A program made the position numbers and the translations under genes. This document shows, piece by piece, positions 1,557 to 20,174 of a DNA stretch of 45,695 nt (position 1 is its first letter; each line of letters starts with the position of its first letter). Source of the DNA: a phage; NCBI GenBank assembly GCA_032325415.1, contig GCA_032325415.1_4119.2; one strand, written 5' to 3'. The notes under the pieces were generated by a model that saw nothing but the letters and a program-made list of their open reading frames with translations, was not told the DNA's origin and ran no database searches.

Positions 1557-2170
1557 AATTTTTATTTTGTTTTTTCCAATAGTTCCCCTACCGCGTGGGG
1601 ATAGTTTCCCCGCAGTATCTGGTGTTAGATTTTTCTGAATCTGGAATCATTATCTTATAAACTGGGGGCAATGTCAACGGCCTGGACGGATATTTTTAAA
1701 AATTTTTTCAGTACTGAATTTTGGGCGTAACTATGCACCCGGTGGGCTTGAGTCTTTCTCGACTTGATGGAACTATTATACAGTACTGAAAAAATAAAGC
1801 AATACCCTGGAAGCAAAAAAGTTTTAATTAATTTGCTTGCTATCCTGGGCCGGACTATGGTACTATGTTTCAGTACTGAGAAAGTGCGTTTACCTGCTAG
1901 GGTGCGGGAGTGTATCCTTTTTTTATATCTTGAATTTTGGGCGTAATTCCGCACCCTCTGGGGTTTCCGCTTTCTCGCGTCTATGTAGTAATTATACGCT
2001 TTTTCAGGATCAAGTCAATACCTAAAAACAAAATAATTGAAAATAATTTAACGCGTTTAAACGGCCTGTAAAGCCCTGGAATGATTGGAATGGTGCAAAT
2101 GTATAGCTTATGTGTATTAATGCGTTAGAATGCGTCTGAGGCCGTTTTACGGGGTATAGGGATGATTTAG

Positions 2171-3777: not shown

Positions 3778-3806
3778 TTGACTTATTTTGTCAGTACTGG
3801 CATAAT
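3778..3806 (+). promoter_or_regulatory. sigma70-like promoter with no ORF downstream
   Basis: -35 TTGACT 3778-3783, 17-bp spacer, -10 CATAAT 3801-3806. Confidence 0.5.
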
Positions 3807-3960
3807 GTATTCATTGGCAGATAAGCCGTAGCCCATAGGGTGCGGGAGTGTATCTATAGCAAAATTAGTTTAGTATAGTTACAATTGTGCACCCGGTGGG
3901 TTAGCTGTTGTCATGGGGTATATTATGCCAGTACTTGATAATGCTGTCAATACTTTTTTA
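3807..3960 (+). other. candidate structured non-coding transcript carrying GCCCATAGGGTGC and its inverted partner GCACCCGGTGGG
   Basis: No ORF; the two motif copies are about 50 nt apart in opposite orientation and could pair; ends in T-run near 3950. Confidence 0.3.
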
Positions 3961-6001: not shown

Positions 6002-6223
6002 ATGGCTAATATCACTACTCTTTCCCAACTGGAAGCACTGGTTAAATCTATGCGGGAACATGCTGACAAAATCGGCGTACAAGATCCAGCCGTTTGCTTC
6101 TGCGACGAATTGAATGATGATACCCTGGTAATAGCAGAAGTCCAGGACGTTTCTAACTATTCCTCGCGTTACACTGGCGGCGTAGCAAATAAAGGCGACT
6201 TCTGTTTATACCTTACAAAATAA
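6002..6223 (+). CDS. hypothetical protein (73 aa)
   Basis: SD GAGGAAA then ATG 6002, in frame with track ORF 5972 whose start lies in the leader hairpin. Confidence 0.65.
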   Translation: MANITTLSQLEALVKSMREHADKIGVQDPAVCFCDELNDDTLVIAEVQDVSNYSSRYTGGVANKGDFCLYLTK

Positions 6224-6228
6224 CAACG

Positions 6229-6258
6229 CGGGGAGATAATAACTCCCCGTTACTTTTT
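6229..6258 (+). terminator. rho-independent terminator
   Basis: CGGGGAG-ATAATAA-CTCCCCG followed by TTACTTTTT. Confidence 0.7.
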
Positions 6259-6391
6259 CAGTACTGAATCATTTAATAGACGGATCTCGGCACCCGGTGG
6301 GTTAGTGACTGTTTCGTCTTGATGTAGTAATTATGCCAGTACTGGATGCACTTGTCAACAATTATTTTTCAAATACTTTTTATTAAAATAC

Positions 6392-8845: not shown

Positions 8846-8878
8846 AGATTTTATCAAGACAACTAAGAGGAAATTAAA

Positions 8879-9223: not shown

Positions 9224-9303
9224 TTAGCTTTACTTTATGCAGATACTTTGATATAGTGTCTGCATAGGGGAAAGAAATTAAATTAACTTAAGAGGATAGT
9301 ATA

Positions 9304-9573: not shown

Positions 9574-9624
9574 TCAAAACATCGTTAGCGGTCGATTTAG
9601 GCCGCTTATATTGGGGATTATACC

Positions 9625-9897: not shown

Positions 9898-9902
9898 TTA
9901 AT

Positions 9903-10112
9903 ATGCTTACTGTACAGGATAAGATCGACATCTTAAAGGTTAATATGTATGTGATTGATGCCGTACCTGGTAAAGTATTTGCATACGATGATAGTACTGT
10001 AAGCGATTTCTACTATAGCCAGGCCGTGGGGGATCTTTCTGTACAGTCGGTTATTGAAAATGTAGTTAATGCAGCGTATGAGCATTTACTTTCAAATAGT
10101 ACTTGCAATTAG
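9903..10112 (+). CDS. hypothetical protein (69 aa)
   Basis: Track ORF 5 nt after previous stop; its stop TAG 10110-10112 lies immediately after the next -35. Confidence 0.55.
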   Translation: MLTVQDKIDILKVNMYVIDAVPGKVFAYDDSTVSDFYYSQAVGDLSVQSVIENVVNAAYEHLLSNSTCN

Positions 10113-10130
10113 TTTTTAAACGCGTATAAT
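10103..10130 (+). promoter_or_regulatory. sigma70-like promoter (cassette type)
   Basis: -35 TTGCAA 10103-10108, 16-bp spacer, -10 TATAAT 10125-10130; hairpin GCGGGAATAGTTCCCCC. Confidence 0.65.
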
Positions 10131-10182
10131 GTTTTACATCGAGAGCGGGAATAGTTCCCCCCTCACTTTTAAGGAATATGAA

Positions 10183-10329
10183 ATGAAAGCATCAAAAAAG
10201 AGTACTAACAAGAAAGCACGTTCAACCTTAGATGGGGTATTCCCTTTACGTTTCGTTGATGAAGTGGTTTCCTACCCGCCTGGCCTTACTCCTGAGATGG
10301 TAGAAAGTTTGCGTAAATCTAAAAAATAG
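10183..10329 (+). CDS. small basic protein (48 aa)
   Basis: SD AAGGAAT then ATG 10183, in frame with track ORF 10129 whose start is in the promoter. Confidence 0.55.
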   Translation: MKASKKSTNKKARSTLDGVFPLRFVDEVVSYPPGLTPEMVESLRKSKK

Positions 10330-10332
10330 TAC

Positions 10333-10360
10333 TTGCAATTAGTTTTTAGTACTGTATAAT
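10333..10360 (+). promoter_or_regulatory. sigma70-like promoter (cassette type)
   Basis: -35 TTGCAA 10333-10338, 16-bp spacer with CAGTACTG, -10 TATAAT 10355-10360; hairpin GGGGAGAA-ATGA-TTCTCCCC. Confidence 0.65.
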
Positions 10361-10410
10361 GTTTTACATGAAGGGGAGAAATGATTCTCCCCAATAACAG
10401 GAGAAACAAA

Positions 10411-10563
10411 ATGAAACAATACAACGCTCGGTTTGATGTTACTATCGGTAACGGCAAAGGTCAATTCTCTTTCAGTACTCGCCGCAGTTATACAGAAAAC
10501 TTCCTGCGTAATTGTGCACTGACCGCCGCTCAAATTAAACATTACTTTCAGGCTAAAAAATGA
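10411..10563 (+). CDS. small protein (50 aa)
   Basis: SD CAGGAGA then ATG 10411, in frame with track ORF 10381. Confidence 0.55.
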   Translation: MKQYNARFDVTIGNGKGQFSFSTRRSYTENFLRNCALTAAQIKHYFQAKK

Positions 10564-10649
10564 GATCATTAGCTTATTACAGTTCGGCCCTGGTCGGTGC
10601 ATTGATCGCGGCGTTGTTAGTAACCTATCTATTCTTTATGGTGATTTAA
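10560..10649 (+). CDS. small hydrophobic membrane peptide (29 aa)
   Basis: ATG 10560 overlaps upstream stop (ATGA); MRSLAYYSSALVGALIAALLVTYLFFMVI is a single predicted transmembrane helix; not in track. Confidence 0.45.
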   Translation: MRSLAYYSSALVGALIAALLVTYLFFMVI

Positions 10650-10784
10650 ATGAATCCTAACGGTATAGTTTACAGTACTCCTAAAACGAAAGCAGATAAA
10701 GCTAAAGCACGTAAAGCGAAAGTAAAGGAGTACATCAAGCAAGGCATGACACGAAAGGCCGCAGTACTTAAAGCTAAAAAATAA
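10650..10784 (+). CDS. small Lys-rich basic protein (44 aa)
   Basis: ATG 10650 directly follows the previous stop (TAAATG); MNPNGIVYSTPKTKADKAKARKAKVKEYIKQGMTRKAAVLKAKK; not in track. Confidence 0.4.
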   Translation: MNPNGIVYSTPKTKADKAKARKAKVKEYIKQGMTRKAAVLKAKK

Positions 10785-10787
10785 ATG

Positions 10788-10882
10788 AAAAAAGTGGTTG
10801 ACTTCGGTCAGCCATTTTGCTATTATATATTCATTGAGAGATAGCTCACTAGCCCACAGGGTGCAGGAGTGTATCTATTATA
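10788..10882 (+). repeat. R module copy 1: terminator-like hairpin with embedded promoter plus conserved core AGCCCACAGGGTGCAGGAGTGTATCT
   Basis: Hairpin GTGGTTGAC-TTCG-GTCAGCCAT (wobble-compensated), -35 TTGACT 10798-10803, -10 TATTAT 10821-10826; homologous to 14813, 17527, 19497. Confidence 0.65.
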
Positions 10883-10920
10883 TGAGTATTGAGTACTGAA
10901 AACTATTTTTAAAAAAGTAC

Positions 10921-10948
10921 TTGCAAACTATCTCAATAAGCGTATAAT
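10921..10948 (+). promoter_or_regulatory. sigma70-like promoter (cassette type)
   Basis: -35 TTGCAA 10921-10926, 16-bp spacer, -10 TATAAT 10943-10948; hairpin AGGGGAAAC-G-GTTTCCCCT. Confidence 0.65.
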
Positions 10949-10999
10949 GTTTTACATCGAAAGGGGAAACGGTTTCCCCTGGTAATAAGGAAACAAATC

Positions 11000-11341
11000 A
11001 TGACTATCTCAATTGCTCAATCTAACTTTGAAAATGAAATCATCGCCCAGGCACTGCGTTTAAATGATGGTCGGGCCGAAATTAATTACGGTTTCAATTC
11101 AGGCGGTTGTGAAAAATATCAGTACTTTGTAACGGCTGATGGCGGTGTCCTGGGTATCAATACAGTTATTGTAAACATCCAAAAAATTAATTTCAATGAT
11201 CCAGAGGATAGCCAGTTTTACATCACTGGCGTAGACGTGAACTATGAGGATGACTCACTAACTGATGATCACACTGGTGAGCGGTTAGAAAGTGCATACG
11301 GTGAAGATGATTATCAGTCCGGTCCAGAAGATTTCGAATAA
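11000..11341 (+). CDS. hypothetical acidic protein (113 aa)
   Basis: SD TAAGGAAA then ATG 11000; track ORF. Confidence 0.65.
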   Translation: MTISIAQSNFENEIIAQALRLNDGRAEINYGFNSGGCEKYQYFVTADGGVLGINTVIVNIQKINFNDPEDSQFYITGVDVNYEDDSLTDDHTGERLESAYGEDDYQSGPEDFE

Positions 11342-11355
11342 TATAAAAAAATAGT

Positions 11356-11383
11356 TTGACAATAGATTATAGTACTGTATAAT
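11356..11383 (+). promoter_or_regulatory. sigma70-like promoter (cassette type)
   Basis: -35 TTGACA 11356-11361, 16-bp spacer with AGTACTG, -10 TATAAT 11378-11383; hairpin GGGGAGAA-TAG-TTCTCCCC. Confidence 0.65.
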
Positions 11384-11436
11384 AGTTTACATCAAGGGGA
11401 GAATAGTTCTCCCCACTAACAGAGAGAGAAAACAAA

Positions 11437-11649
11437 ATGGCTAATATCCGGTCGAAATTAAAAAATGCAAAACAAGTTTTATTTTCAGATCATGAATACT
11501 TTAATAAAGATATTACAGGAGTTACAAGTATCAAGGAAGTAAAAGAAAAAACCGGCGTTTTGTGTGATGTGCGATTAGTTGGAACATTTGGGAATAACGT
11601 GCTATATCGCTGCGGTGATTACAATTTTACACTGACTATCATTAACTAA
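11437..11649 (+). CDS. hypothetical protein (70 aa)
   Basis: ATG 11437 after AGAGAGAGAAAACAAA leader; track ORF. Confidence 0.6.
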   Translation: MANIRSKLKNAKQVLFSDHEYFNKDITGVTSIKEVKEKTGVLCDVRLVGTFGNNVLYRCGDYNFTLTIIN

Positions 11650-11661
11650 AAATATTATCAC

Positions 11662-11697
11662 AGTACTATTGACATAGTTTGATAGTACTGACATAAT
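11662..11697 (+). promoter_or_regulatory. promoter with operator-like inverted repeat AGTACTAT-N12-ATAGTACT
   Basis: AGTACTAT 11662-11669, -35 TTGACA 11669-11674, ATAGTACT 11682-11689, -10 CATAAT 11692-11697. Confidence 0.6.
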
Positions 11698-11731
11698 AAC
11701 TTTTATCAACTACACTACTAAGGAATTAAAA

Positions 11732-11911
11732 ATGGCTATCATCGCAAAAACTGAAATCATCGGCCTGGATTCTATCATCATGACGTTTGAAGATCAAAAA
11801 GGTATGTATGTGGTTTCCTATGGTGATTATGTTCGGGAGTATGAAACGGTAGACGAAGCCTTTGAAAGTTACATTCGCCAGGTGAATAAAGCATACGACG
11901 ACTACCGCTAA
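11732..11911 (+). CDS. small protein (59 aa), not in ORF track
   Basis: SD TAAGGAAT then ATG 11732; ORF MAIIAKTEIIGLDSIIMTFEDQKGMYVVSYGDYVREYETVDEAFESYIRQVNKAYDDYR; the minus-strand track ORF 11778..11978 is rejected. Confidence 0.55.
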   Translation: MAIIAKTEIIGLDSIIMTFEDQKGMYVVSYGDYVREYETVDEAFESYIRQVNKAYDDYR

Positions 11912-11922
11912 AATATATTACC

Positions 11923-11966
11923 AGTACTATTAAATCTATTGACAATGTTTGATAGTACTGTATAAT
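11923..11966 (+). promoter_or_regulatory. promoter with operator-like inverted repeat AGTACTAT-N21-ATAGTACT
   Basis: AGTACTAT 11923-11930, -35 TTGACA 11939-11944, ATAGTACT 11952-11959, -10 TATAAT 11961-11966. Confidence 0.6.
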
Positions 11967-12010
11967 AAGTTTTATCAACAGTAGTTAACTTAACCTAAGA
12001 GAGAAACAAA

Positions 12011-12154
12011 ATGATCGCACTGGATTCATTCATCGACGCAGTACTGGCAAAAACTGGCGAGGATCTGACCGCAGAACAATACGCGATGATCGAGCAATGC
12101 CAGCAAGACGGTAAATCGGTGAAAGATACTGTTAAGATTATCCGCAAGATGTAA
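12011..12154 (+). CDS. small protein (47 aa), not in ORF track
   Basis: SD TAAGAGAGA then ATG 12011; ORF MIALDSFIDAVLAKTGEDLTAEQYAMIEQCQQDGKSVKDTVKIIRKM; followed by terminator. Confidence 0.5.
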   Translation: MIALDSFIDAVLAKTGEDLTAEQYAMIEQCQQDGKSVKDTVKIIRKM

Positions 12155-12160
12155 GATTAT

Positions 12161-12190
12161 AGCCCACTGGTTAACGCTGGTGGGCTTTAA
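12161..12190 (+). terminator. probable rho-independent terminator
   Basis: AGCCCAC-TGGTTAACGC-TGGTGGGCT hairpin then TTTAATT (weak T-run). Confidence 0.55.
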
Positions 12191-12259
12191 TTCATTACCC
12201 TATACAATGCCAGTACTACACCGTTTATCTCGTTAGAATGCGTTACAGGACGTTTGACA

Positions 12260-12457
12260 ATGATTAGCATGAAATCAGTACAAAAACAAATAGAAACATT
12301 ATCAAAAATTAAACGTAAACAGTACTCCTTAGAATATACAATCAATGGTAACTATCATCTAATGAAAGAGAATAATTTTATCGTCATTGATGAATCATTG
12401 CAAATCATTAGTATAGTACTGAAAGCATTAATCAATGACAGAAAAAAATTAAAATAA
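12260..12457 (+). CDS. hypothetical AT-rich protein (65 aa)
   Basis: Track ORF; ATG 12260 with SD-like AGGACG 7 nt upstream; no cassette promoter; composition differs from neighbours. Confidence 0.4.
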   Translation: MISMKSVQKQIETLSKIKRKQYSLEYTINGNYHLMKENNFIVIDESLQIISIVLKALINDRKKLK

Positions 12458-12461
12458 ACTA

Positions 12462-12490
12462 TTGACAATATCATCAAGTACTGGCATAAT
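12462..12490 (+). promoter_or_regulatory. sigma70-like promoter
   Basis: -35 TTGACA 12462-12467, 17-bp spacer with AGTACTG, -10 CATAAT 12485-12490. Confidence 0.55.
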
Positions 12491-12541
12491 ACTTACATCA
12501 AGACGAGAACGTCACTAACCCATAGGGTGCACAAATGTAAC

Positions 12542-12625
12542 TGTATAATATTGATCAAAAAATGATCTGATCAATACTTGATCAATTTGCGTAAAGTAGT
12601 ATAATTCTGATCAATTCTTGATCAA
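12542..12625. promoter_or_regulatory. cluster of six GATC sites (five within TGATCAA palindromes) flanked by extended -10-like elements
   Basis: GATC at 12553, 12564, 12569, 12580, 12609, 12620; TGTATAAT 12542-12549 and TAGTATAAT 12597-12605. Confidence 0.55.
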
Positions 12626-12786
12626 AGGCAATAAACGCAGTTGAATTTATATAGACAATACAAAGGCGTTACTATCCGTGGTAATGCTGGTGGATATGTA
12701 GTATCATATGGTTTGAATAAGATTAGCACTAGTAGTATTATTGTAGCATTACAGTACTATAGTATTTTTATAATGAGGTTAAAATA

Positions 12787-13044
12787 ATGGCTGTTGGATT
12801 CGCGAAGGACGGGGCCGAGCAAGACGAGATTAACGCAGTGATTCAGGCCGCTGTAAACCACGCTAGAACGCAAATTAACGCACAAATAGAATCACTGATA
12901 CATTGCCTCGACTGTGGCGATAAAATCCCTGAGAATCGCCGCCAGGTCGTTAAGGGGTGTAAGTACTGTATCACTTGCCAGGAGGATCATGATAGTACTT
13001 TTAAACGTCAACCGCGTAATTGTTGGCATAGATCTATGAGATAA
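12787..13044 (+). CDS. TraR/DksA-family C4 zinc-finger protein (85 aa), likely RNA-polymerase-binding regulator
   Basis: CLDCGDKIPENRRQVVKGCKYCITCQ matches the TraR/DksA zinc-finger pattern CxxCG-x-IP-x-x-RR ... CxxCQ (compare F-plasmid TraR CEACGNPIPEARRK...CVECQ). Confidence 0.8.
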   Translation: MAVGFAKDGAEQDEINAVIQAAVNHARTQINAQIESLIHCLDCGDKIPENRRQVVKGCKYCITCQEDHDSTFKRQPRNCWHRSMR

Positions 13045-13050
13045 AAAGTA

Positions 13051-13078
13051 TTGACAGTACTGAAAGATAGTGTATAAT
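13051..13078 (+). promoter_or_regulatory. sigma70-like promoter
   Basis: -35 TTGACA 13051-13056, 16-bp spacer with AGTACTG, -10 TATAAT 13073-13078. Confidence 0.6.
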
Positions 13079-13107
13079 GTTTTATATCTTAACTGAGGAT
13101 AGAAATC

Positions 13108-13464
13108 ATGGGAATACAACATATCACGCGTACTACTGACAATGGCGAGATCACTGGCTATCAAGTACAGGGCAAAGTAGCACAATTGCAGTACTGGTTT
13201 GTTAAACGTGGAATCATTGCACCGGATCTTGATTATGACCGTGTAGCGTTTATTGATTCTCTTTATGTTGATCCTGATAGTCGGGGGAATGGTGAAGGTA
13301 ACGAATTAATGAATGCCTTTATTGATGCCGCCGATGATTCAGATTGTATCATCTTAGAATGCGATACGGGAGAAGATAACGCCTTTAATCTTAAAGAATG
13401 GTATGAAGGTTTCGGATTCGAGGTACTGATCGATAGTGAATATCCTATCATGATTTTATCATAG
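13108..13464 (+). CDS. putative GNAT-family N-acetyltransferase (118 aa)
   Basis: SLYVDPDSRGNGEGNELMNAF resembles GNAT motif A (R/Q-x-x-G-x-G/A acetyl-CoA loop) and EWYEGFGFE resembles motif B; SD TGAGGAT. Confidence 0.55.
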   Translation: MGIQHITRTTDNGEITGYQVQGKVAQLQYWFVKRGIIAPDLDYDRVAFIDSLYVDPDSRGNGEGNELMNAFIDAADDSDCIILECDTGEDNAFNLKEWYEGFGFEVLIDSEYPIMILS

Positions 13465-13467
13465 TAC

Positions 13468-13496
13468 TTGCATTTAGTTTTCAGTACTGTTATAGT
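13468..13496 (+). promoter_or_regulatory. sigma70-like promoter (cassette type)
   Basis: -35 TTGCAT 13468-13473, 17-bp spacer with CAGTACTG, -10 TATAGT 13491-13496; hairpin AGGGGAA-ACATC-TTCCCCT. Confidence 0.55.
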
Positions 13497-13542
13497 ACTT
13501 GCATCAAGGGGAAACATCTTCCCCTACTAAGAGGAAATAAAA

Positions 13543-13731
13543 ATGGAAAACTTATCAAGTATTTTAGTACAAGATGATTTCGGTAATCCTGGAAGTGCTA
13601 TCATTGTTCGGGGTAATAAAGCAACATTTGTTATTGCTGGTGGACCTGTACAGCGTAGCATTAAAAACAATGCCGTTACTATTAATAATGTACGCTATCG
13701 CTTAGATAAAGAATTGATTCATAAACTGTAA
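13543..13731 (+). CDS. hypothetical protein (62 aa)
   Basis: SD TAAGAGGA then ATG 13543; track ORF. Confidence 0.6.
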   Translation: MENLSSILVQDDFGNPGSAIIVRGNKATFVIAGGPVQRSIKNNAVTINNVRYRLDKELIHKL

Positions 13732-13758
13732 TATTAATTTAATAGAGGATAACAATAA

Positions 13759-14082
13759 ATGTACATTCATACTACTATCACAAAGGAAGTCCGTTGCCAG
13801 TTCGAAAGTATTCCGGGCGTATGTTTCATCACTGGTACGTTTTCCCCTGGTGATCGTGATAATCCAGTACTGTTACAATTACGCCATCCATCATGGGATA
13901 AAGCATTTGATCTACCGTTGAATGAATTCGCAACTACTGCTGAAAAGTACATTAAAAATATTCGCGAGAATGATCGACTATTCATTAATGCTTTTAGTGA
14001 TTCCGCGTTAAGCGAGATCCACGGCGTATTGGTTGCAATCATGGAATCAATGCAGAAAACTAAATTCAAACAAGGTGAATAA
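13759..14082 (+). CDS. hypothetical protein (107 aa)
   Basis: SD AGAGGA then ATG 13759; track ORF; overlapping minus-strand ORF 13767..14177 rejected. Confidence 0.6.
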   Translation: MYIHTTITKEVRCQFESIPGVCFITGTFSPGDRDNPVLLQLRHPSWDKAFDLPLNEFATTAEKYIKNIRENDRLFINAFSDSALSEIHGVLVAIMESMQKTKFKQGE

Positions 14083-14088
14083 AAACTA

Positions 14089-14116
14089 TTGACAATGCAA
14101 TCCAGTACTGTATAAT
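14089..14116 (+). promoter_or_regulatory. sigma70-like promoter (cassette type)
   Basis: -35 TTGACA 14089-14094, 16-bp spacer with CAGTACTG, -10 TATAAT 14111-14116; hairpin GGGGAGAA-ATGA-TTCTCCCC. Confidence 0.65.
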
Positions 14117-14165
14117 AAGTTACATGAAGGGGAGAAATGATTCTCCCCACTGAGAGGAAAGAAAA

Positions 14166-14378
14166 ATGCAAGGTCAACTAATCGTTCGTAAATGGTCTGA
14201 TACTAACGAAAAACCGTGGGATGTACAATACATCGGACCGGATGGGGTATCACGTTATCAGCCTGGCGTAACGCATAGTACTGAGCAATTCGCCAACGCT
14301 CACCGCGAACGCCTGTTAGAATCCATGAAACAGGGATACGGTGAAAAATTCATTCAAGATCATTGGCTGAAAGATTAA
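14166..14378 (+). CDS. hypothetical protein (70 aa)
   Basis: SD TGAGAGGA then ATG 14166; track ORF. Confidence 0.65.
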   Translation: MQGQLIVRKWSDTNEKPWDVQYIGPDGVSRYQPGVTHSTEQFANAHRERLLESMKQGYGEKFIQDHWLKD

Positions 14379-14395
14379 TATAAGGAGTACAGCTT

Positions 14396-14488
14396 ATGCA
14401 AATGAATCCGATGATTATTGTTTTAGCTGTACTTATGATCATTCATGCAATAGTAGAAGTATTAACGCAATCAGGAGTAATAAAATGA
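14396..14488 (+). CDS. small hydrophobic membrane peptide (30 aa)
   Basis: Strong SD TAAGGAG then ATG 14396; MQMNPMIIVLAVLMIIHAIVEVLTQSGVIK; not in track. Confidence 0.5.
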   Translation: MQMNPMIIVLAVLMIIHAIVEVLTQSGVIK

Positions 14489-14658
14489 TTCAAGTAGAAT
14501 TATCAGTACTGAAAGATCTGTTTTATCGGTTAGGTACTACTGGAGAGTATCCTAAAAGTGATACCGCAAAACTTTTTGTATCACTCGACTTATGGCAACG
14601 CGAACAATTAGTAATGTCCTGGCGTAAAGGTAAAGCAGATAGCGAGGTGAAAGCATGA
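14485..14658 (+). CDS. small protein (57 aa)
   Basis: ATG 14485 overlaps upstream stop (ATGA) with SD CAGGAG inside the upstream ORF; not in track. Confidence 0.45.
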   Translation: MIQVELSVLKDLFYRLGTTGEYPKSDTAKLFVSLDLWQREQLVMSWRKGKADSEVKA

Positions 14659-14804
14659 AAGAATTCTTATTCGAAGTAGTGTTTCAAGGTGTCGGTAGTA
14701 ACCAACTGATTCGCTCAAGTGGTTATAATGTTAACCAGGCATGGAATAACATTAAACAAATGTACCCGAACGCTATCACCTATCGCAACCCGAAAGAAGT
14801 TTAA
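14655..14804 (+). CDS. small protein (49 aa)
   Basis: ATG 14655 overlaps upstream stop (ATGA); SD GAGGTG; not in track. Confidence 0.45.
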   Translation: MKEFLFEVVFQGVGSNQLIRSSGYNVNQAWNNIKQMYPNAITYRNPKEV

Positions 14805-14812
14805 AAATATTT

Positions 14813-14900
14813 GAAAAAGGGATTGACTCCGGTCAGTCCCTTTGCTATTATATACGCATAGAAACAAATCAGCCCACAGGGTGCATAAATGTATCTATTG
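14813..14900 (+). repeat. R module copy 2 (terminator-like hairpin, embedded promoter, conserved core)
   Basis: AAAAAGGGATTGACTCCGGTCAGTCCCTTT hairpin; -35 TTGACT 14823-14828, -10 TATTAT 14846-14851; core AGCCCACAGGGTGCATAAATGTATCT. Confidence 0.65.
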
Positions 14901-14935
14901 TTTGCTGGTGGCTAGTACTGAAAACTATTTTTAAA

Positions 14936-15117
14936 AAGTACTTGCATTGTACTTAGAATCAAGTATAATGTTTTACATCAGGACGGGGAACGAAACAAGT
15001 AACCCCGTTAAGTAGTCCAGGAGTAAGACATAAGAAAACCTCCCCTGATAAAATAGTTTGACAATAGAAAGTAAAAGAGTATAATACTTACATCAACCAC
15101 TGATAAGGAAACATAAA
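14936..15117 (+). repeat. dual-promoter leader module, copy 2 (near-identical to 3990-4172)
   Basis: Promoter A (-35 TTGCAT 14942-14947, -10 TATAAT 14964-14969), hairpin ACGGGGAA...CCCCGT, conserved AAGTAGTCCAGGAGTAAGACATAAGAAAACCTCCCCTGATAAAATAG, promoter B (-35 TTGACA 15058-15063, -10 TATAAT 15080-15085). Confidence 0.7.
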
Positions 15118-15393
15118 ATGCGGATTCTACTGACAGCTAACGAAATCGAACAAGTACTGACTACTAACCTGGAAGACTGGAAACGTGAAGCAGATATCCA
15201 GGCGGTTCAACGGCTTAACGATGAGTTAACGCCGGATGACTTAAGCAAGATTGTAGATCCTCAATTCTACGAAGATATCCACGACACCGCGTTAAGCGTC
15301 GAGGATGTACTAGATAAGCACTACATTGATATTGATTTGCAGGTTTACGGTCGTAAAAACTTTATCACTATTCACGACATTTACAATAATTAA
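15118..15393 (+). CDS. hypothetical acidic protein (91 aa)
   Basis: SD TAAGGAAA then ATG 15118; track ORF. Confidence 0.65.
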   Translation: MRILLTANEIEQVLTTNLEDWKREADIQAVQRLNDELTPDDLSKIVDPQFYEDIHDTALSVEDVLDKHYIDIDLQVYGRKNFITIHDIYNN

Positions 15394-15396
15394 GTA

Positions 15397-15424
15397 TTGA
15401 CAAAGTATCTTAGTACTGTATAAT
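15397..15424 (+). promoter_or_regulatory. sigma70-like promoter (cassette type)
   Basis: -35 TTGACA 15397-15402, 16-bp spacer with AGTACTG, -10 TATAAT 15419-15424; hairpin GAGGGGAA-ACGG-TTCCCCTC. Confidence 0.65.
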
Positions 15425-15481
15425 AGTTTACATCAAGTGAGGGGAAACGGTTCCCCTCCTAACAAAGAGAGAGAAATAAAA

Positions 15482-15805
15482 ATGGCTATGATCCTTACCC
15501 AGAAAGTGGAACTGAAAATTGTAACCTCCTTTGACATTAACGTTAATCGGTGGACTGATTCACACGGCAATACTTACCACTCTTGCTACGTGTCTGCTTT
15601 AATTGGCGACCGCTGGGAAGACCTGGGACACGAAACCTTTACATACGGTTACGGTACACAAGGCGAATACACGGGCTTGGAGATCATTAAAGAAACCGTT
15701 ATAGGTTTCAACCCGAAAGAAAAAGTTATTCACCGCATCGAGGAAGAGATCAACAAAGAAATAACAGTTCGCTACCACGATGTAAAACGTAAGAAAGACA
15801 TGTAA
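15482..15805 (+). CDS. hypothetical protein (107 aa), distant paralog of 8879..9223
   Basis: ATG 15482 in frame with track ORF 15437 whose start is in the leader hairpin. Confidence 0.65.
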   Translation: MAMILTQKVELKIVTSFDINVNRWTDSHGNTYHSCYVSALIGDRWEDLGHETFTYGYGTQGEYTGLEIIKETVIGFNPKEKVIHRIEEEINKEITVRYHDVKRKKDM

Positions 15806-15819
15806 TAGAATCCATTTAA

Positions 15820-15856
15820 AGTACTATTTGACATTGCCCAGATAGTACTTTATAAT
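15820..15856 (+). promoter_or_regulatory. promoter with operator-like inverted repeat AGTACTAT-N14-ATAGTACT
   Basis: AGTACTAT 15820-15827, -35 TTGACA 15828-15833, ATAGTACT 15842-15849, -10 TATAAT 15851-15856. Confidence 0.6.
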
Positions 15857-15900
15857 AGACTCTAACTTGTAGTACTAACTCAACTAATAGGATGTATACC

Positions 15901-16296
15901 ATGATTACTAAATTCTACGCTACCCGTGAAGCTGCCCGTATTGTTGCACGCGAGGAAGGAGCAGCATTTAAAGACATGGGCAAAGATGCACCGAAAGGCC
16001 AACGCTGGGCCGTACAGTTCAAAGAGATCTCTGATATTGTGAATTCACCTGAGCCAGTACTAACAGCAGCAGAACTAAAACGAGCGGATTTACTGGCGTC
16101 AATACTTGATGCACAAGATGAGTTTATCGCTGATTCTGATATCAAAGTACAGACAAACCATACCGCTTGGACTCACGCGGATCACCTGGCAAACCTGAAG
16201 CGTCCAAGTGAACTGGTACGCAACCAGAAAGAGATCCGACACGACCGTAAGGGTAATCGTGTAACAGTATACAGTAAACGCCGCCAGGTTATCTAA
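15901..16296 (+). CDS. hypothetical protein (131 aa), paralog of 3163..3429
   Basis: ATG 15901 chosen by paralog alignment and SD AGGAT spacing; track start 15892 is an alternative. Confidence 0.6.
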   Translation: MITKFYATREAARIVAREEGAAFKDMGKDAPKGQRWAVQFKEISDIVNSPEPVLTAAELKRADLLASILDAQDEFIADSDIKVQTNHTAWTHADHLANLKRPSELVRNQKEIRHDRKGNRVTVYSKRRQVI

Positions 16297-16318
16297 TAAC
16301 TTGCAGTACTAACAACAC

Positions 16319-16344
16319 GGCGGGATCAGTTCCCGCCTTTTTTA
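16319..16344 (+). terminator. rho-independent terminator
   Basis: GGCGGGA-TCAG-TTCCCGCC followed by TTTTTTAT. Confidence 0.8.
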
Positions 16345-16357
16345 TAGGACAAACAAA

Positions 16358-16612
16358 ATGATTAAGGTTCAACTATATAAAGATAATATCTTGCGGGTAC
16401 ACTATAAAGCCCCTCAGAGAATCATCACAAAGGCCGTACAGCTTGCTAATGAGTTTATTAATGGTAACCTATTACCTAGGAAGTTAAGCAACGGGAAACT
16501 GCGTGTAATCGACGTGGACACTAACAACAGGATAGTAATCGAGAACACAGGAAAGATAAACCTTTATGAGCATCAACAATACAATAAGAAAATAAAACTA
16601 ATATCACGTTGA
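16358..16612 (+). CDS. hypothetical protein (84 aa)
   Basis: Track ORF downstream of terminator; weak SD. Confidence 0.5.
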   Translation: MIKVQLYKDNILRVHYKAPQRIITKAVQLANEFINGNLLPRKLSNGKLRVIDVDTNNRIVIENTGKINLYEHQQYNKKIKLISR

Positions 16613-16637
16613 CAGTACTCAAATGTTTTAGTACTAT
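16609..16637 (+). promoter_or_regulatory. putative sigma70-like promoter
   Basis: -35 TTGACA 16609-16614, 17-bp spacer, -10 TACTAT 16632-16637. Confidence 0.45.
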
Positions 16638-16666
16638 ATGTACATACCAACACGGGGAGAAACAAA

Positions 16667-16909
16667 ATGATTACTTTAGAAAAACGTATCAAAGAAACTA
16701 CATCGCTGGTGGAACTGTTAACAGTACTCAAATGTAAAACTACTCGGTTTAGTACACCGGACTTTATTAATATGGTTGATGTTAATGGTCGCTATCGTAT
16801 CACGGTCGAACAAGGAGCGGCGAAAGTATTCAGTACTAAAAACACTAAGGAAGTGATTCACGCTGTAAGTGTTAAAAAAGTAGTTGCCATTGATAGTAAA
16901 GTACTGTAA
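16667..16909 (+). CDS. hypothetical protein (80 aa)
   Basis: SD GGGGAGA then ATG 16667; track ORF. Confidence 0.55.
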   Translation: MITLEKRIKETTSLVELLTVLKCKTTRFSTPDFINMVDVNGRYRITVEQGAAKVFSTKNTKEVIHAVSVKKVVAIDSKVL

Positions 16910-16940
16910 GATAGTTTCATTAACTCAAGGAGAACATGCA

Positions 16941-17525
16941 ATGCGTAATTATACTAAATTCATCCGTACCCTGTCAGAAATGGAAACCAACAAAGAGATC
17001 CTTTCAGCTTGTCGGTTAGCTGGTCTGGAGATCATCGGTGCGGGTTCTTCCCGTATTGTATTCGCTTTAAATGATCGGTTAGTGATTAAGGTCGCGAATT
17101 GTGATGCGGGTGTAGAACAAAATGAAACTGAATGTAAGGTATGGAATTTTTTAGATTATGACCGCCCTCAATTGAAACAGTACTTTGCAAAGGTGCATAT
17201 GCATTTATGCGATCCTGATAATATGTTTATCGTTATGGATCGGTTGAGTACTGCAAGTAAAGGCAGTGTAAAGCACGTAAACGCGTGCAATGAATTAAAG
17301 TACAATATTAAACGTAATGCCATTGAACGCCAGCACCGCTTTGCTGATGCACTACAACACGTTGATGATACATTATCAACACTAACGATAAGAGATATCA
17401 GAAAACAGAATATCGGCCAGGATCGTAATGGCCTTATTAAAGTACTTGATTACGGTTTAACCCGCAATATCTGGAATCAGTACTATAAAAAGCGTGATGT
17501 AGAAGCAAGTAAGGTAACACGATAA
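16941..17525 (+). CDS. putative small protein-kinase-like protein (194 aa)
   Basis: SD AAGGAG then ATG 16941; motifs IGAGSSRIVF (Gly-rich loop), LVIKVA (VAIK-like Lys), IRDIRKQNIG (HRD-x-K-x-x-N-like catalytic loop), KVLDYGL (DFG-like). Confidence 0.55.
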   Translation: MRNYTKFIRTLSEMETNKEILSACRLAGLEIIGAGSSRIVFALNDRLVIKVANCDAGVEQNETECKVWNFLDYDRPQLKQYFAKVHMHLCDPDNMFIVMDRLSTASKGSVKHVNACNELKYNIKRNAIERQHRFADALQHVDDTLSTLTIRDIRKQNIGQDRNGLIKVLDYGLTRNIWNQYYKKRDVEASKVTR

Positions 17526-17526
17526 A

Positions 17527-17612
17527 AAAAGATTAAAAAAGGGATTGACTCCGGTCAGTCCCTTTGCTATTATATATTCATTGAGAGATAACTCACTGAC
17601 CCATAGGGTGCG
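17527..17612 (+). repeat. R module copy 3 (terminator-like hairpin, embedded promoter, conserved core)
   Basis: AAAAAAGGGATTGACTCCGGTCAGTCCCTTT; -35 TTGACT 17545-17550, -10 TATTAT 17568-17573; core GACCCATAGGGTGCGGAAGTGTATCT. Confidence 0.65.
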
Positions 17613-17666
17613 GAAGTGTATCTATTATATAAGTATTCAGTACTGAAAACTATTTTTAAAAAGTAC

Positions 17667-17694
17667 TTGCATTGTACTTAGAATCAAGTATAAT
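17667..17694 (+). promoter_or_regulatory. sigma70-like promoter (cassette type)
   Basis: -35 TTGCAT 17667-17672, 16-bp spacer, -10 TATAAT 17689-17694; hairpin GAGAGGGGAA-ATGG-TTCTCCCTC. Confidence 0.65.
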
Positions 17695-17747
17695 GTTTTA
17701 TATCGAGAGGGGAAATGGTTCTCCCTCAAAGAACAAGGAATAAAATC

Positions 17748-17969
17748 ATGACTACAATGACTTGCATTCACGCTTCAAACCTGCTTAATGATGCGGCCTT
17801 TAATGTTGAAACAGAATATCAATGTTATCGGGATGAAAATAAAAAAGTTTTTGTAGTTGATAATAATGGTTTCCATATTGAATTGCAATCCGGCTTCACT
17901 GGCGTTGATGGTAAATCAGTATGGGGAGTACAGGATGATAAAGGCACATATCATTTTAAACGTAATTAA
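17748..17969 (+). CDS. hypothetical protein (73 aa)
   Basis: SD AAGGAAT then ATG 17748, in frame with track ORF 17715. Confidence 0.65.
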   Translation: MTTMTCIHASNLLNDAAFNVETEYQCYRDENKKVFVVDNNGFHIELQSGFTGVDGKSVWGVQDDKGTYHFKRN

Positions 17970-17972
17970 GTA

Positions 17973-18000
17973 TTGACAAAGTATATCAGTACTGTATAAT
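17973..18000 (+). promoter_or_regulatory. sigma70-like promoter (cassette type)
   Basis: -35 TTGACA 17973-17978, 16-bp spacer with CAGTACTG, -10 TATAAT 17995-18000; hairpin GGGGAGAA-TAG-TTCTCCCC. Confidence 0.65.
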
Positions 18001-18053
18001 AGTTTACATCAAGGGGAGAATAGTTCTCCCCACCAATAAAAGGAAACAAAATT

Positions 18054-18326
18054 ATGTCCAGCTACTCCGCTACTATGATTATTAAAGATATGAACGGTAA
18101 TCCTACTTCTGCTGGTGGATCATTTGGTAACATTAACTTAGATGGGCGGTTATCAATTGAATCAGCCATCAATGCCGCGAAAGAAGTTTTTAAGAATGAA
18201 TGTACTGTAAGCAAGCTGGATTATATGGGCTTCGCTATCGAGAAAACTAATCGTTTTGTGGACTACAAAAAACCACTGATGATCGATACTAACCTGAAAG
18301 CTAACGAAGTGGAATACTTATTATGA
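18054..18326 (+). CDS. hypothetical protein (90 aa)
   Basis: SD AAAGGAAA then ATG 18054; track ORF. Confidence 0.65.
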   Translation: MSSYSATMIIKDMNGNPTSAGGSFGNINLDGRLSIESAINAAKEVFKNECTVSKLDYMGFAIEKTNRFVDYKKPLMIDTNLKANEVEYLL

Positions 18327-18514
18327 CAGTAGAAGAAGTTAAAAAAGTACTGGCAGTACTACGCTATCATAATCATTGCAAGGTGAAGAATGATCCTGAT
18401 TATGTTGATTCATCCCTGGAGGAAGACACATTAAACGCAATAAGCCATATGCAAAAAATGCTTAAGCGTATGACCGAAAAGAACAGGCCAGACTATATCG
18501 GAAATAAAATTTAA
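18323..18514 (+). CDS. hypothetical protein (63 aa)
   Basis: ATG overlaps upstream stop (ATGA), translational coupling; track ORF. Confidence 0.55.
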   Translation: MTVEEVKKVLAVLRYHNHCKVKNDPDYVDSSLEEDTLNAISHMQKMLKRMTEKNRPDYIGNKI

Positions 18515-18521
18515 AAAGTAC

Positions 18522-18549
18522 TTGCATTGTAGTTAGATTAACGTATAAT
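18522..18549 (+). promoter_or_regulatory. sigma70-like promoter (cassette type)
   Basis: -35 TTGCAT 18522-18527, 16-bp spacer, -10 TATAAT 18544-18549; hairpin GCGGGGGAA-TAG-TTCTCCCGC. Confidence 0.65.
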
Positions 18550-18600
18550 GTTTTACATAGAGCGGGGGAATAGTTCTCCCGCCAGTCCAGGAGATACACC

Positions 18601-18864
18601 ATGAACACTATCGAAATCACTATCAATGCACACGTATACGACAACGTAGTACTGCAAACTACTATGACCGCCAATGATACCAGTACTTTGCGGAATGCCG
18701 TTGTAAGTGCTGTATGTGCTGCAATCGGTGATGTAGCCCTGGAAAATGCAGAACACATCAACAACGGTTTCACTATGTGCAAACGTGATAACGCAAAACA
18801 TATCATCGTAGAAGGTTACGGCGGTGTAGAATTTAATGTTTATATGAAAAAAGTACTTGCATAA
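18601..18864 (+). CDS. hypothetical protein (87 aa)
   Basis: SD CCAGGAGA then ATG 18601; last codons overlap the next -35. Confidence 0.65.
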   Translation: MNTIEITINAHVYDNVVLQTTMTANDTSTLRNAVVSAVCAAIGDVALENAEHINNGFTMCKRDNAKHIIVEGYGGVEFNVYMKKVLA

Positions 18865-18884
18865 TAACTAAAACAAAGTATAAT
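18857..18884 (+). promoter_or_regulatory. sigma70-like promoter (cassette type)
   Basis: -35 TTGCAT 18857-18862, 16-bp spacer, -10 TATAAT 18879-18884; hairpin GGGGGAG-ATAT-CCTCCCCC. Confidence 0.65.
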
Positions 18885-18931
18885 GTTTTGCATAGGGGGA
18901 GATATCCTCCCCCACTAAAAGGAGTAATAAA

Positions 18932-19156
18932 ATGGCTAACTTTGATGAACTGATGCGGGAAGTAGCTAACCTGGCAGAAGAGAAGAAATCATTCGATTCT
19001 ATCTATAACACCGCTCACCGTGATTCAGTACTGGCATGTACTCAGGATCAAAAAGATGAACTAATCGCCACCTATCATGAAGCATGGAAGTACTACCGAC
19101 AATGGGAGAAAGAAGAAAGTGAGTCTACCATTGACGGCCTCAATAATCTAATCTAA
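18932..19156 (+). CDS. hypothetical acidic protein (74 aa)
   Basis: SD AAAGGAGT then ATG 18932; track ORF. Confidence 0.65.
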   Translation: MANFDELMREVANLAEEKKSFDSIYNTAHRDSVLACTQDQKDELIATYHEAWKYYRQWEKEESESTIDGLNNLI

Positions 19157-19168
19157 AAGTTTTATTTC

Positions 19169-19205
19169 AGTACTATTGACATAGCTTGATAGTACTGATG
19201 TAATA
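19169..19205 (+). promoter_or_regulatory. promoter with operator-like inverted repeat AGTACTAT-N12-ATAGTACT
   Basis: AGTACTAT 19169-19176, -35 TTGACA 19176-19181, ATAGTACT 19189-19196, -10-like TGTAAT about 19199-19204. Confidence 0.55.
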
Positions 19206-19232
19206 ACTTTACTAACTACAAGGGGAAACATA

Positions 19233-19490
19233 ATGGAACAGTTCACACAATATCGGGTAAATCCTCAAGCTATGGCCTACGTAGAAGACCATAAAACATT
19301 ACCAGTACTGCAACCAGTTAAAGGCCATATCTATCGTGCTATGTCGTGGAGTACGGCCCAGGATGGCTATAAAACCGTAGCCGTTGGTATGTATTGCGGG
19401 AATGGTGAATGGTTTGATCCAAATAATCCGGTAGCCATTGACAGTACTGAAAAAATGAAATGGGCCGACTACATCGAAGATATTTCATAA
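19233..19490 (+). CDS. hypothetical protein (85 aa)
   Basis: SD AAGGGGA then ATG 19233; track ORF. Confidence 0.6.
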   Translation: MEQFTQYRVNPQAMAYVEDHKTLPVLQPVKGHIYRAMSWSTAQDGYKTVAVGMYCGNGEWFDPNNPVAIDSTEKMKWADYIEDIS

Positions 19491-19496
19491 AAAGAA

Positions 19497-19585
19497 TAAA
19501 AAAGGGATTGACTCCGGTCAGTCCCTTTGCTATTATATACGCATAGACAAAAACTAGCCCACAGGGTGCATAGGTGTATCTAAAA
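19497..19585 (+). repeat. R module copy 4 (terminator-like hairpin, embedded promoter, conserved core)
   Basis: AAAAAAGGGATTGACTCCGGTCAGTCCCTTT; -35 TTGACT 19508-19513, -10 TATTAT 19531-19536; core AGCCCACAGGGTGCATAGGTGTATCT. Confidence 0.65.
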
Positions 19586-19670
19586 TATATAGTTAATAAC
19601 GGTGAGTAACTATCTGCTGGTGGATGTACTGCCAGTACTCAAGGGAACTAAAACTATTAATAAAAAAGTA

Positions 19671-19699
19671 TTGACAAAGTATATCAGTACTGCGATAAT
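19671..19699 (+). promoter_or_regulatory. sigma70-like promoter
   Basis: -35 TTGACA 19671-19676, 17-bp spacer with CAGTACTG, -10 GATAAT 19694-19699. Confidence 0.55.
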
Positions 19700-19752
19700 G
19701 TATCTCGTAGGGCGGCAATGGTGCGACGGCCCACAAAGTTAGGAGATTCAAA

Positions 19753-20085
19753 ATGAGTACTTCAATCGCTATCGTTAAAGCTTTCATCCGTACCAATGTT
19801 TCATCTGTATTCATCGACGGACTGGATCGTGAAGTAGAATACTCAATCATTATCGCACAGACTGCAAACGGTGCTCGGTATATCCTCAATGATAGTGAAG
19901 CAAATCACTACTACTTCACTAAAGCTACTGGCTTTAAACGCATCGATGCCGATGTAGTATACGCTAAGATGAATAAGCTGGTAGACAAGATTAACGCTAA
20001 AGGCACTATTGATTTACAGTACTGGACCGAAACCGATCCAGAATATGGATCTCACCGCTACCTGAATCCAGGTATCAAAATGTAA
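19753..20085 (+). CDS. hypothetical protein (110 aa)
   Basis: SD TAGGAG then ATG 19753; track ORF; overlapping minus-strand ORF 19593..19889 rejected. Confidence 0.65.
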   Translation: MSTSIAIVKAFIRTNVSSVFIDGLDREVEYSIIIAQTANGARYILNDSEANHYYFTKATGFKRIDADVVYAKMNKLVDKINAKGTIDLQYWTETDPEYGSHRYLNPGIKM

Positions 20086-20092
20086 AAAGTAC

Positions 20093-20120
20093 TTGCATAG
20101 TACTTAGATTCATGTATAAT
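20093..20120 (+). promoter_or_regulatory. sigma70-like promoter (cassette type)
   Basis: -35 TTGCAT 20093-20098, 16-bp spacer, -10 TATAAT 20115-20120; hairpin GAGGGGGAA-ATGG-TTCTCCCTC. Confidence 0.65.
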
Positions 20121-20174
20121 GTTTTACATAGAGAGGGGGAAATGGTTCTCCCTCCTAAATTAAGGAGTTTTATC

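Follow-up and report, generated by a model that had tools for sequence, protein, structure and literature searches.

A promoter-linked element repeated in RaK2-like jumbo phages: a candidate small-RNA family

What is the role of a hairpin that carries a promoter in its own stem and is followed, each time, by the same short sequence? The question is raised by a 45,695-nucleotide (nt) stretch of phage DNA (NCBI GenBank assembly GCA_032325415.1, contig GCA_032325415.1_4119.2; hereafter the window), in which such a module recurs four times between positions 10,788 and 19,585. A first-pass annotation had read the module as one element that could both terminate upstream transcription and start a short transcript, possibly belonging to a small-RNA family. 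We found that the sequence following these hairpin-promoters is part of a promoter-linked element with RNA-type pairing, and that, judged from its conservation and architecture, this element is a candidate small-RNA family of RaK2-like jumbo phages that has apparently not been described before.

Four hairpin-promoter modules and their core

The four modules were all present where they had been reported. A 29-nt pattern spanning the -35 to -10 region (TTGACTYCGGTCAGYCMYTTTGCTATTAT) has exactly four matches in the window, at 10798, 14823, 17545 and 19508, and matched in 0 of 100 shuffles. Each module carries a hairpin of 12 pairs with a 4-nt loop (UUCG or UCCG) closed by a C-G pair, with predicted energies of -15.9 and -19.5 kcal/mol; these hairpins begin 6-13 nt past the stop codons of upstream open reading frames (ORFs) and have a U-rich tail. 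In all four, a promoter scan returned a sigma70-type promoter, TTGACT-17-TATTAT, with a TG extended -10 and an A-run upstream, and the -35 TTGACT is itself the 5′ arm of the hairpin. Module 1 (10791..10826, + strand, as are the other three) has its UUCG hairpin at 10791-10818, 6 nt past the stop codon of ORF 10650-10784, and its promoter runs from TTGACT (10798) to TATTAT (10826). Module 2 (14816..14851) has a UCCG hairpin at 14816-14843, 11 nt past the stop codon of ORF 14655-14804, and a promoter at 14823-14851. The hairpin of module 3 (17538..17573) lies at 17538-17565, 12 nt past the stop codon of ORF 16884-17525, with the promoter at 17545-17573, and that of module 4 (19501..19536) at 19501-19528, 10 nt past the stop codon of ORF 19233-19490, with the promoter at 19508-19536.

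Modules 2-4 are identical across hairpin and promoter. Copy 1 departs from them in three stem pairs, and not at two positions as first noted; its differences are indeed compatible with pairing, since two are compensatory (G-C to U-A and A-U to G-C) and the third is a change from G-C to G.U. A broader comparison, covering ~25 distinct co-oriented copies from several genera, showed TTGAC kept in the 5′ arm and a covarying lower stem (GGGA/UCCC, GUGG/CCAU, GGGG/CCCC, GUAC/GUAC, AAGG/CCUU; loops UUCG/UCCG/UACG). The position of the hairpins just past stop codons, together with a lower stem that covaries around a retained TTGAC, supports on comparative grounds the proposed terminator with an embedded promoter. 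Tuerk and colleagues reportedly described C(UUCG)G hairpins in T4 intergenic regions in 1988, and the UUCG, UCCG and UACG loops found here, closed by C-G, resemble them; this likeness applies to the terminator hairpin only, not to the core.

That core, the invariant sequence CCCAYMGGGTGC, has nine exact copies in the window versus 0 expected. Six are on the + strand, four of them in the modules (10853, 14873, 17600 and 19558) and two outside (3832 and 12519), and three are on the - strand (1746, 3900 and 6301); the five sites beyond the modules had been correctly listed in the first-pass annotation. We found two additional copies, a - strand variant at 1951-1962 (CCCAGAGGGTGC) and a degenerate + strand copy near 1891. 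All 10 window copies lie downstream of a sigma70 promoter, in the same orientation.

The four copies, initially described as one module, fall into two subtypes. In modules 1 and 3 the leader is 20 nt long and contains a hairpin (P1); in modules 2 and 4 it is 15 nt long and lacks P1. The putative RNA element of module 1 (10833..10886, +) has a predicted start near 10833, at the A of a CAT, followed by P1 (UGAG/CUCA), the core at 10853-10864 and a second helix, P2, that extends to 10876; it is matched at 10845-10886 by a covariance model (CM) of the family, with 52.5 bits. No terminator lies downstream of it, and the next promoter (10921-10948) is followed by a gene start at 11000. Module 3 (17580..17633, +) is also of the long-leader class, with the same P1 (UGAG/CUCA), its core at 17600-17611 and a CM match at 17592-17633. 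The elements of modules 2 (14858..14906, +) and 4 (19543..19591, +) belong to the short-leader class (AUAGAAACAAAUCAG in module 2, without P1), with cores at 14873-14884 and 19558-19569 and CM matches at 14865-14906 and 19550-19591; a Chi octamer stands at 14904 in the former and at 19616 in the latter, where the next promoter lies at 19671-19699. After the module promoter thus come the conserved element and a second full promoter, and the gene begins 170-260 nt further on; the unit is longer than the about 90 bp initially assigned to it.

Judged from its sequence, the source of the window is a RaK2/121Q-like jumbo coliphage: positions 10-20 kb are 90-96% identical to the Asteriusvirus jumbo coliphages UB, SHEFM2K, PBECO4 and 121Q (~350 kb), with a mosaic coverage of 50-70%. 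The + strand from position 1 to ~20.5 kb bears dozens of ORFs of 50-130 codons each, and ~20 small ORFs have an individual promoter cassette (AAAAAGTACTTGCA-N-TATAAT, a hairpin GGGGAGAAnnGUUCUCCCC in the 5′ untranslated region (5′ UTR), then a ribosome-binding site). We read the stretch 1-20.5 kb as an early region transcribed by host RNA polymerase because of its analogy with the related phage CBB, in which the early region is rich in RpoD promoters (PMC5259590).

In such a setting, the hairpin-promoters recall the PeSLs (promoter-early stem-loops) of the T4-type phages RB49/phi1, PST/T4 and nt-1/KVP40 (Arbiol et al. 2010, PMC2839356; Comeau et al. 2014, PMC4122927). PeSLs consist of a strong sigma70 promoter and a terminator stem-loop, often located between or over the -35 and -10, and are repeated as intergenic cassettes among ORFan genes in hyperplastic regions, where they are proposed recombination points (PMC2839356, PMC4122927). 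Here too, a predicted strong sigma70-like promoter, A/T-rich upstream, is fused to a G/C-rich stem-loop placed to stop upstream transcription, and the copies are repeated between small ORFan genes of a hyperplastic early region, with its dozens of 50-130-aa ORFs. Indel boundaries with respect to relatives fall in repeated promoter cassettes, a likeness that is only partial for the four modules themselves. In BLAST, the first 40-50 nt of the module match KVP40-like Vibrio phages, in keeping with the nt-1/KVP40 stem-loop consensus A3-4G3-loop-C3T3-4. There are also differences: the -35 hexamer itself is the 5′ stem arm, and the jumbo-phage cassette ends not in a Shine-Dalgarno sequence and start codon but in a ~55-nt element with a 12-nt core, followed by a second promoter. 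Moreover, promoter and element also occur without the upstream hairpin, in antisense and with their own terminator, and the PeSL papers contain no such RNA element; the window has, in addition, about 20 gene-proximal promoter cassettes with the stem-loop in the 5′ UTR. From its architecture, the flagged hairpin-promoter is a member of the PeSL kind, and extends it from T4-type to 350-kb RaK2-like phages.

Conservation and pairing of the element

The core belongs to a family that is wider than the window, being conserved across RaK2-like jumbo phages. In RaK2, K64-1-like phages, CBB, GAP32, Serratia BF, Yersinia phages, TH47 and 121Q we obtained 62 distinct core matches, of which 61 are family copies and one is an unrelated terminator palindrome at position 7126 of TH47. 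All 61 copies have a sigma70-like promoter upstream in the same orientation, with the core 14-23 nt past the predicted start; the conserved CAT, the likely start, precedes the core by 14-15 nt in the short class and by 19-23 nt in the long class. An IMG/VR pattern scan gave matches only in ~350-kb jumbo-phage contigs and in one 109-kb contig, and BLAST with the whole module retrieved jumbo phages of E. coli, Klebsiella, Salmonella, Pectobacterium, Cronobacter, Serratia, Erwinia and Yersinia, with 2-11 places per record. The CM, built from 60 copies, detected 10 copies in TH47, all at 88.9-104.9 kb of 352 kb, and 8-9 in Klebsiella phage OU509535, all at 32.4-48.9 kb of 348 kb, so that in these two complete genomes every copy is confined to a single ~16-kb stretch. 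In 185,579 bacterial and archaeal genomes, a pattern scan gave 15 matches, single and scattered, in line with a chance estimate of ~35, and none of them was in Enterobacterales.

We found no earlier account of the element. The whole window has no match in Rfam 15 at gathering thresholds, and permissive thresholds over 1-20.5 kb yielded three chance-level matches only, none at the element; a search of the window for transfer-RNA and tmRNA genes found none. Literature searches with the core motif and on jumbo-phage small RNAs gave no match, the element is absent from the genome papers on CBB, RaK2 and Sharanji, and deposited genomes annotate it at most as a stem-loop or terminator. A 2025 review on phage small RNAs does not mention jumbo phages (PMC12197685).

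The identity of modules 2-4 across hairpin and promoter could suggest that the four modules are simply young paralogous intergenic copies, duplicated recently and without function. The chances of this explanation are close to negligible: the element is conserved across RaK2-like genera that have only about a third of their proteins in common (PMC5259590), the core stays invariant while flanking promoters, leaders and terminators diverge strongly, and the spread of the family in the IMG/VR scan, in BLAST and in Klebsiella phage OU509535 contradicts it.

At which level, DNA or RNA, is the element conserved? Long-class leaders form P1, a hairpin of 3-5 bp with a purine-rich loop of 6-8 nt at a fixed place, for which we counted 20 distinct stems, including some with G.U pairs. 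Swapping arms between copies reduced predicted stability from -3.44 (native) to -1.38 kcal/mol (chimeric; z -8.6, 0/20000 permutations). The core itself can fold into a small hairpin, RCCC-AYM-GGGU, 99% paired, in which R-U is A-U or G.U and the C-G pairs are constant in all 60 copies; among variants detected by the model are two C-G to U-A double changes (L010 7814 and L003 4535) and several 4-nt loops. In an alternative helix, P2, GGGUGCN pairs with NGYRYCY five nt downstream (90.5% paired vs 26-58% in slid registers), and its variation is wobble-neutral throughout, plus one C-G to G-C change. We consider the core hairpin and P2 plausible from these alignments. Reliance on G.U pairs and the fixed orientation relative to promoters argue for a constraint at the RNA level. 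A further, long hairpin between the 5′ leader and the post-core segment (AGAUA/UAUCU, AGACG/CGUCU), seen by eye, gave marginal swap tests (p = 0.06 for full folds, p = 0.046 for duplexes) and is not claimed.

This pairing bears on a reading in which the module acts only as DNA, as a PeSL-type recombination linker or as a recombinase or DNA-binding site, with a core devoid of RNA function. PeSLs are proposed recombination points (PMC2839356, PMC4122927), and mosaic boundaries between the window and TH47 or 121Q do fall in repeated promoter cassettes. As an example, window 17729-18510 (781 bp, three small ORFs) is missing from TH47 (L017), and the junction is a 76-bp overlap of two gene-promoter cassette copies, as expected for a PeSL-mediated deletion or insertion. 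Orthologous copies also differ by patchwise replacement of leaders and loops (window 17600 vs TH47 90004; window 10853 vs TH47 96980). Yet the promoter keeps one orientation in 61/61 family copies despite strongly diverging flanks, the P1 arms covary, and the pairing depends on G.U, which is functional only in the transcribed strand; besides, a 12-nt invariant core is too short for homologous recombination and its dyad symmetry is weak. We regard an exclusively DNA-level role as improbable.

The same positions could be read as a mini-ORF leader, with GGGUG as the Shine-Dalgarno sequence and the following AUG, GUG or UUG starting a tiny peptide (M-Y-L-stop in many copies). UG is found there in 41/60 copies, the base before it is A, G or U and never C, and in many copies UAU CUA UAG/UAA comes next. 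We rejected this very unlikely reading because a third of the copies (19/60: CCGUCU, ACGCCC and CUGUCU types) have no start codon there; the length of the frame is also arbitrary, from a start directly followed by a stop up to about 21 codons, and P2 accounts for the same positions.

Orientation, terminators and mode of action

By their placement relative to genes, 51 copies were classified as co-oriented with genes (31) or antisense (20). Of the antisense copies 10/20 have an intrinsic terminator whose end lies at +70 to +75, counted from the first nt of the core, vs 1/31 of the co-oriented ones (Fisher p = 1e-4), and an upstream hairpin in none of the antisense copies vs a hairpin-embedded -35 in at least 10 of the co-oriented ones (Fisher p = 0.004); both p values are optimistic, since the counts include orthologous copies of related genomes that are not independent. 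The terminators of antisense copies vary in sequence from copy to copy and are constant in position. Among the co-oriented copies 25 have no terminator and 5 face a convergent partner, as do 4-5 of the antisense copies; overall, about 60% of copies have no terminator.

The clearest case of a complete unit in the window is the stand-alone copy at 6218..6358 (-), antisense to its flanking genes. Its promoter (TTGACA-17-CATAAT, 6358-6330) has a predicted start near 6323 and is followed by P1 (GAC/GUC), the core at 6301-6290, AGUACUG and an intrinsic terminator (6249-6229) with a U-rich tail, a terminator that the + strand gene 5972-6223 would use from the other side; the predicted RNA is about 106 nt long. 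Together with nine other antisense copies, it has its own promoter and a Rho-independent terminator giving a predicted RNA of ~100 nt. Support for the proposed small-RNA family thus comes mainly from antisense copies with a terminator 70-75 nt past the core start, on which the first-pass annotation had laid no stress; in the four flagged modules, no terminator follows the core and the sequence continues into the next promoter and gene. For these four, a discrete RNA would require processing, or else the element would be a 5′ leader.

This asymmetry is also where the main rival has to be weighed: a cis-acting promoter-proximal element, either a signal of the put, nut or ops kind for pausing, loading or antitermination, or a 5′ determinant of stability or processing, through which transcripts restarted past terminators would read through or survive, unlike those of ordinary gene promoters. 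Such a role fits the 31/51 copies that run along genes, just past a terminator and before genes, without a terminator of their own, and agrees with the constant orientation of the element and its position 14-23 nt past the predicted start. The consensus elemental pause has the skeleton G-10/Y-1/G+1, and GG-N8-UG in the element (columns 16-17 and 26-27 of alignment A1) is compatible with it; that skeleton is, however, low in information, and base pairing explains the same positions. Promoter-proximal signals that modify RNA polymerase, such as HK022 put, lambda nut, ops/RfaH and lambda PR'-6S RNA, are likewise short, structured, conserved elements that open terminator-rich transcription units, a few tens of nt past strong phage promoters. 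The jumbo-phage element differs from them in lacking sequence or structure similarity or an Rfam match, and in that its antisense copies terminate 70-75 nt downstream. Moreover, 20/51 copies run against all neighbouring genes, and in half of them an intrinsic terminator, always at +70 to +75, would end the transcript, an arrangement hard to reconcile with antitermination or with a role as leader. A cis-acting role, fitting the co-oriented copies and not the terminated antisense ones, seems to us rather unlikely.

The explanation that we prefer, as an evenly balanced proposition drawn from sequence comparisons, is a multi-copy early small-RNA family acting in trans through its invariant core. 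In the co-oriented modules, the UNCG-loop hairpin and its U-rich tail would end transcription of the upstream small gene, and the same DNA would serve as a strong extended -10 sigma70 promoter that transcribes the conserved 5′ RNA element. The RNA would start at the A of the conserved CAT, with an optional 3-5 bp P1 with a purine-rich loop, and continue with the invariant CCCAYMGGGUGC, folding into the small hairpin RCCC-loop-GGGU; then would come NUGUAUCU, able to pair with GGGUGC in the G.U-rich P2, and AGUACUG. Promoter and element behave as an autonomous cassette present about 10 times per genome, with selection preserving the 5′ ~60 nt. Placed against genes, the cassette is in half of the copies closed by an intrinsic terminator and would yield a discrete RNA of about 100 nt, as a dedicated small-RNA gene; placed along genes, as in the four flagged copies, it is fused to an upstream terminator and continues into the next promoter and gene, and from copies of this orientation the same 5′ domain would come in a leader or in a processed fragment. 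The abundant early small RNA would act in trans by binding a conserved partner via the core, as a regulator, sponge or decoy.

Besides the optimistic p values, several points weigh against this explanation. Where the RNAs start and end and how abundant they are is predicted throughout, and the absence of terminators in the four flagged copies means that their sequence does not imply a discrete small RNA. The 18 short-leader copies, modules 2 and 4 among them, have no P1. The core hairpin and P2 both use GGGU and are mutually exclusive, and they fall short of proof because they were derived from the same sequences; the invariance of the core also means that most of its pairs carry no covariation information. 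Fold stability is ordinary compared to shuffles (z -1.4 and -0.6; mean z -0.4 for the 5′ domain). Last, in a scan of the phage genome for trans targets, the only strong complements to the core were the antisense strands of other copies.

Small RNAs acting in trans from several loci have a bacterial precedent in families with an invariant core, e.g. Qrr1-5 and OmrA/B: dispersed genes, each with its own promoter and terminator, whose flanks diverge around an invariant short sequence. The jumbo-phage family differs from these in having the core within a small hairpin and not at a free 5′ end, in the terminator-less majority of its copies, and in its host genome, a virulent jumbo phage. The core also bears what we take to be loose resemblances to OmrA/B, CyaR, tmRNA, the CsrA site and CRISPR repeats, including, presumably, a partial one between CACAGG in a short hairpin and type I-F CRISPR repeats, which would bear on RNA anti-CRISPRs (solitary mimics of a host CRISPR repeat in sequence and structure); we made no use of them.

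Going further, we tentatively suggest, as a possibility with less in its favour than the trans-acting family as such, that RaK2-like phages carry an undescribed family of ~10 strongly promoted early small RNAs per genome, whose invariant, possibly bistable CCCAYMGGGUGC hairpin would titrate or guide a conserved host or phage factor when infection begins, in host takeover or as an anti-defence decoy, and whose cassettes would also be insulators and recombination linkers. The small-RNA repertoire of virulent phages, jumbo phages in particular, has barely been charted, and this candidate family is easily testable: its sequence is defined, both transcript ends are predicted, each genome has about 10 copies, and it is conserved in phages of at least 8 enterobacterial host genera. 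If real, the RNA would probably be among the first and most abundant transcripts after infection, providing a handle on early host takeover, and PeSL-type cassettes would be seen to carry a conserved RNA payload besides regulatory signals.

Other copies and neighbouring sequences

The remaining copies of the window show the cassette in other arrangements. In a convergent pair, the + member (3778..3865) has its promoter (3778-3806) within a 13-bp hairpin and its core at 3832-3843, and the - member (3867..3950) has its promoter at 3950-3922 and its core at 3900-3889. The cores face each other 57 nt apart, and each transcript would therefore contain the antisense of its partner's core. The co-oriented copy at 12462..12552 (+), with no upstream hairpin, has a TTGACA-17-CATAAT promoter with TG (12462-12490), P1 (GACG/CGUC) and a core at 12519-12530. 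An antisense copy at 1713..1803 (-) lies in an ORF-poor region, with a promoter near 1803-1775, P1 (AGUC/GACU), a core at 1746-1735, UACGCCC as its 3′ segment and a CM match at 1713-1754. Near it, the variant antisense copy (1929..2018, -) has a promoter at 2018-1991, P1 (CGC/GCG) and the core variant CCCAGAGGGUGC at 1962-1951; it is matched by the CM with 30.3 bits and is convergent with the degenerate + copy (about 1870-1925), in which a GGGUGC...GUAUCC hairpin precedes a T-run.

These last three copies (1746-, 1962- and the degenerate 1891+) share a stretch of ~700 bp poor in ORFs, 1560-2270, which also holds a ~53-bp direct repeat at about 2160-2270. Its counterpart in 121Q is a ~2-kb unannotated gap between genes 265 and 266.

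The gene-proximal promoter cassettes form a second, commoner family, with ~20 sites in window 2268-20166 (e.g. 2746, 3424, 3982, 4784, 8564, 10908, 14929, 17654, 18509 and 20080). Their layout is an A-tract, AGTACTTGCA, a 16-nt spacer, TATAAT, a CAT start, the hairpin GGGGAGAAnnGUUCUCCCC with covarying stems, a Shine-Dalgarno sequence and ATG; the stem-loop is thus transcribed at the 5′ end of the mRNA, and not located upstream of the promoter. Further on, 21.3-28.2 kb and 36.2-44.6 kb are occupied by overlapping small ORFs that are paralogous and arranged in tandem (about 70 aa and about 110-190 aa). Conserved DNA blocks (repeat families D10-D16) lie inside these arrays, which are devoid of the promoter cassettes of 0-20 kb.

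Two canonical terminators at 7346-7362 and 8077-8098, AGCCCACC(loop)GGTGGGCT with a T-run, have AGCCCAC in common with the core, and the unrelated TH47 terminator at 7126 reads GCACCCATTGGGTGC; all of these may resemble the core by coincidence.

The E. coli Chi octamer GCTGGTGG occurs nine times on the + strand vs 0.2 expected (1249, 8185, 12176, 12686, 13636, 14904, 16705, 18111 and 19616), always within the early 1-20 kb, and twice on the - strand (1237 and 8123); two sites fall inside modules 2 and 4. TH47 shows a similar bias (CCACCAGC, 17 vs 1.3 expected), with 9 of 17 sites in the early region. Such an oriented Chi cluster could shield the entering DNA end from RecBCD.

The palindrome AGTACT is abundant too, with 201 occurrences in the window vs 15 expected (and CAGTACTG 51 vs 0.5), densest at 0-20 kb, and 917 vs 119 expected over the TH47 genome (CAGTACTG, 203 vs 3.6). 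It directly precedes the -35 (AAAAAGTACTTGCA) and the -10 (CAGTACTGTATAAT, AGTACTGGCATAAT), is present towards the 3′ end of the RNA element and, in CBB-like phages, forms terminator stems; it may be a protein-binding or promoter-associated site.

Finally, just 3′ of the 12519 copy, window 12552-12625 contains five TGATCA sites, each including GATC, around a promoter-like TTGATC-16-TATAAT, an arrangement kept in 121Q. GATC is depleted across the TH47 genome (581 vs 1132 expected), and the cluster could be Dam/SeqA-sensitive or operator-controlled.

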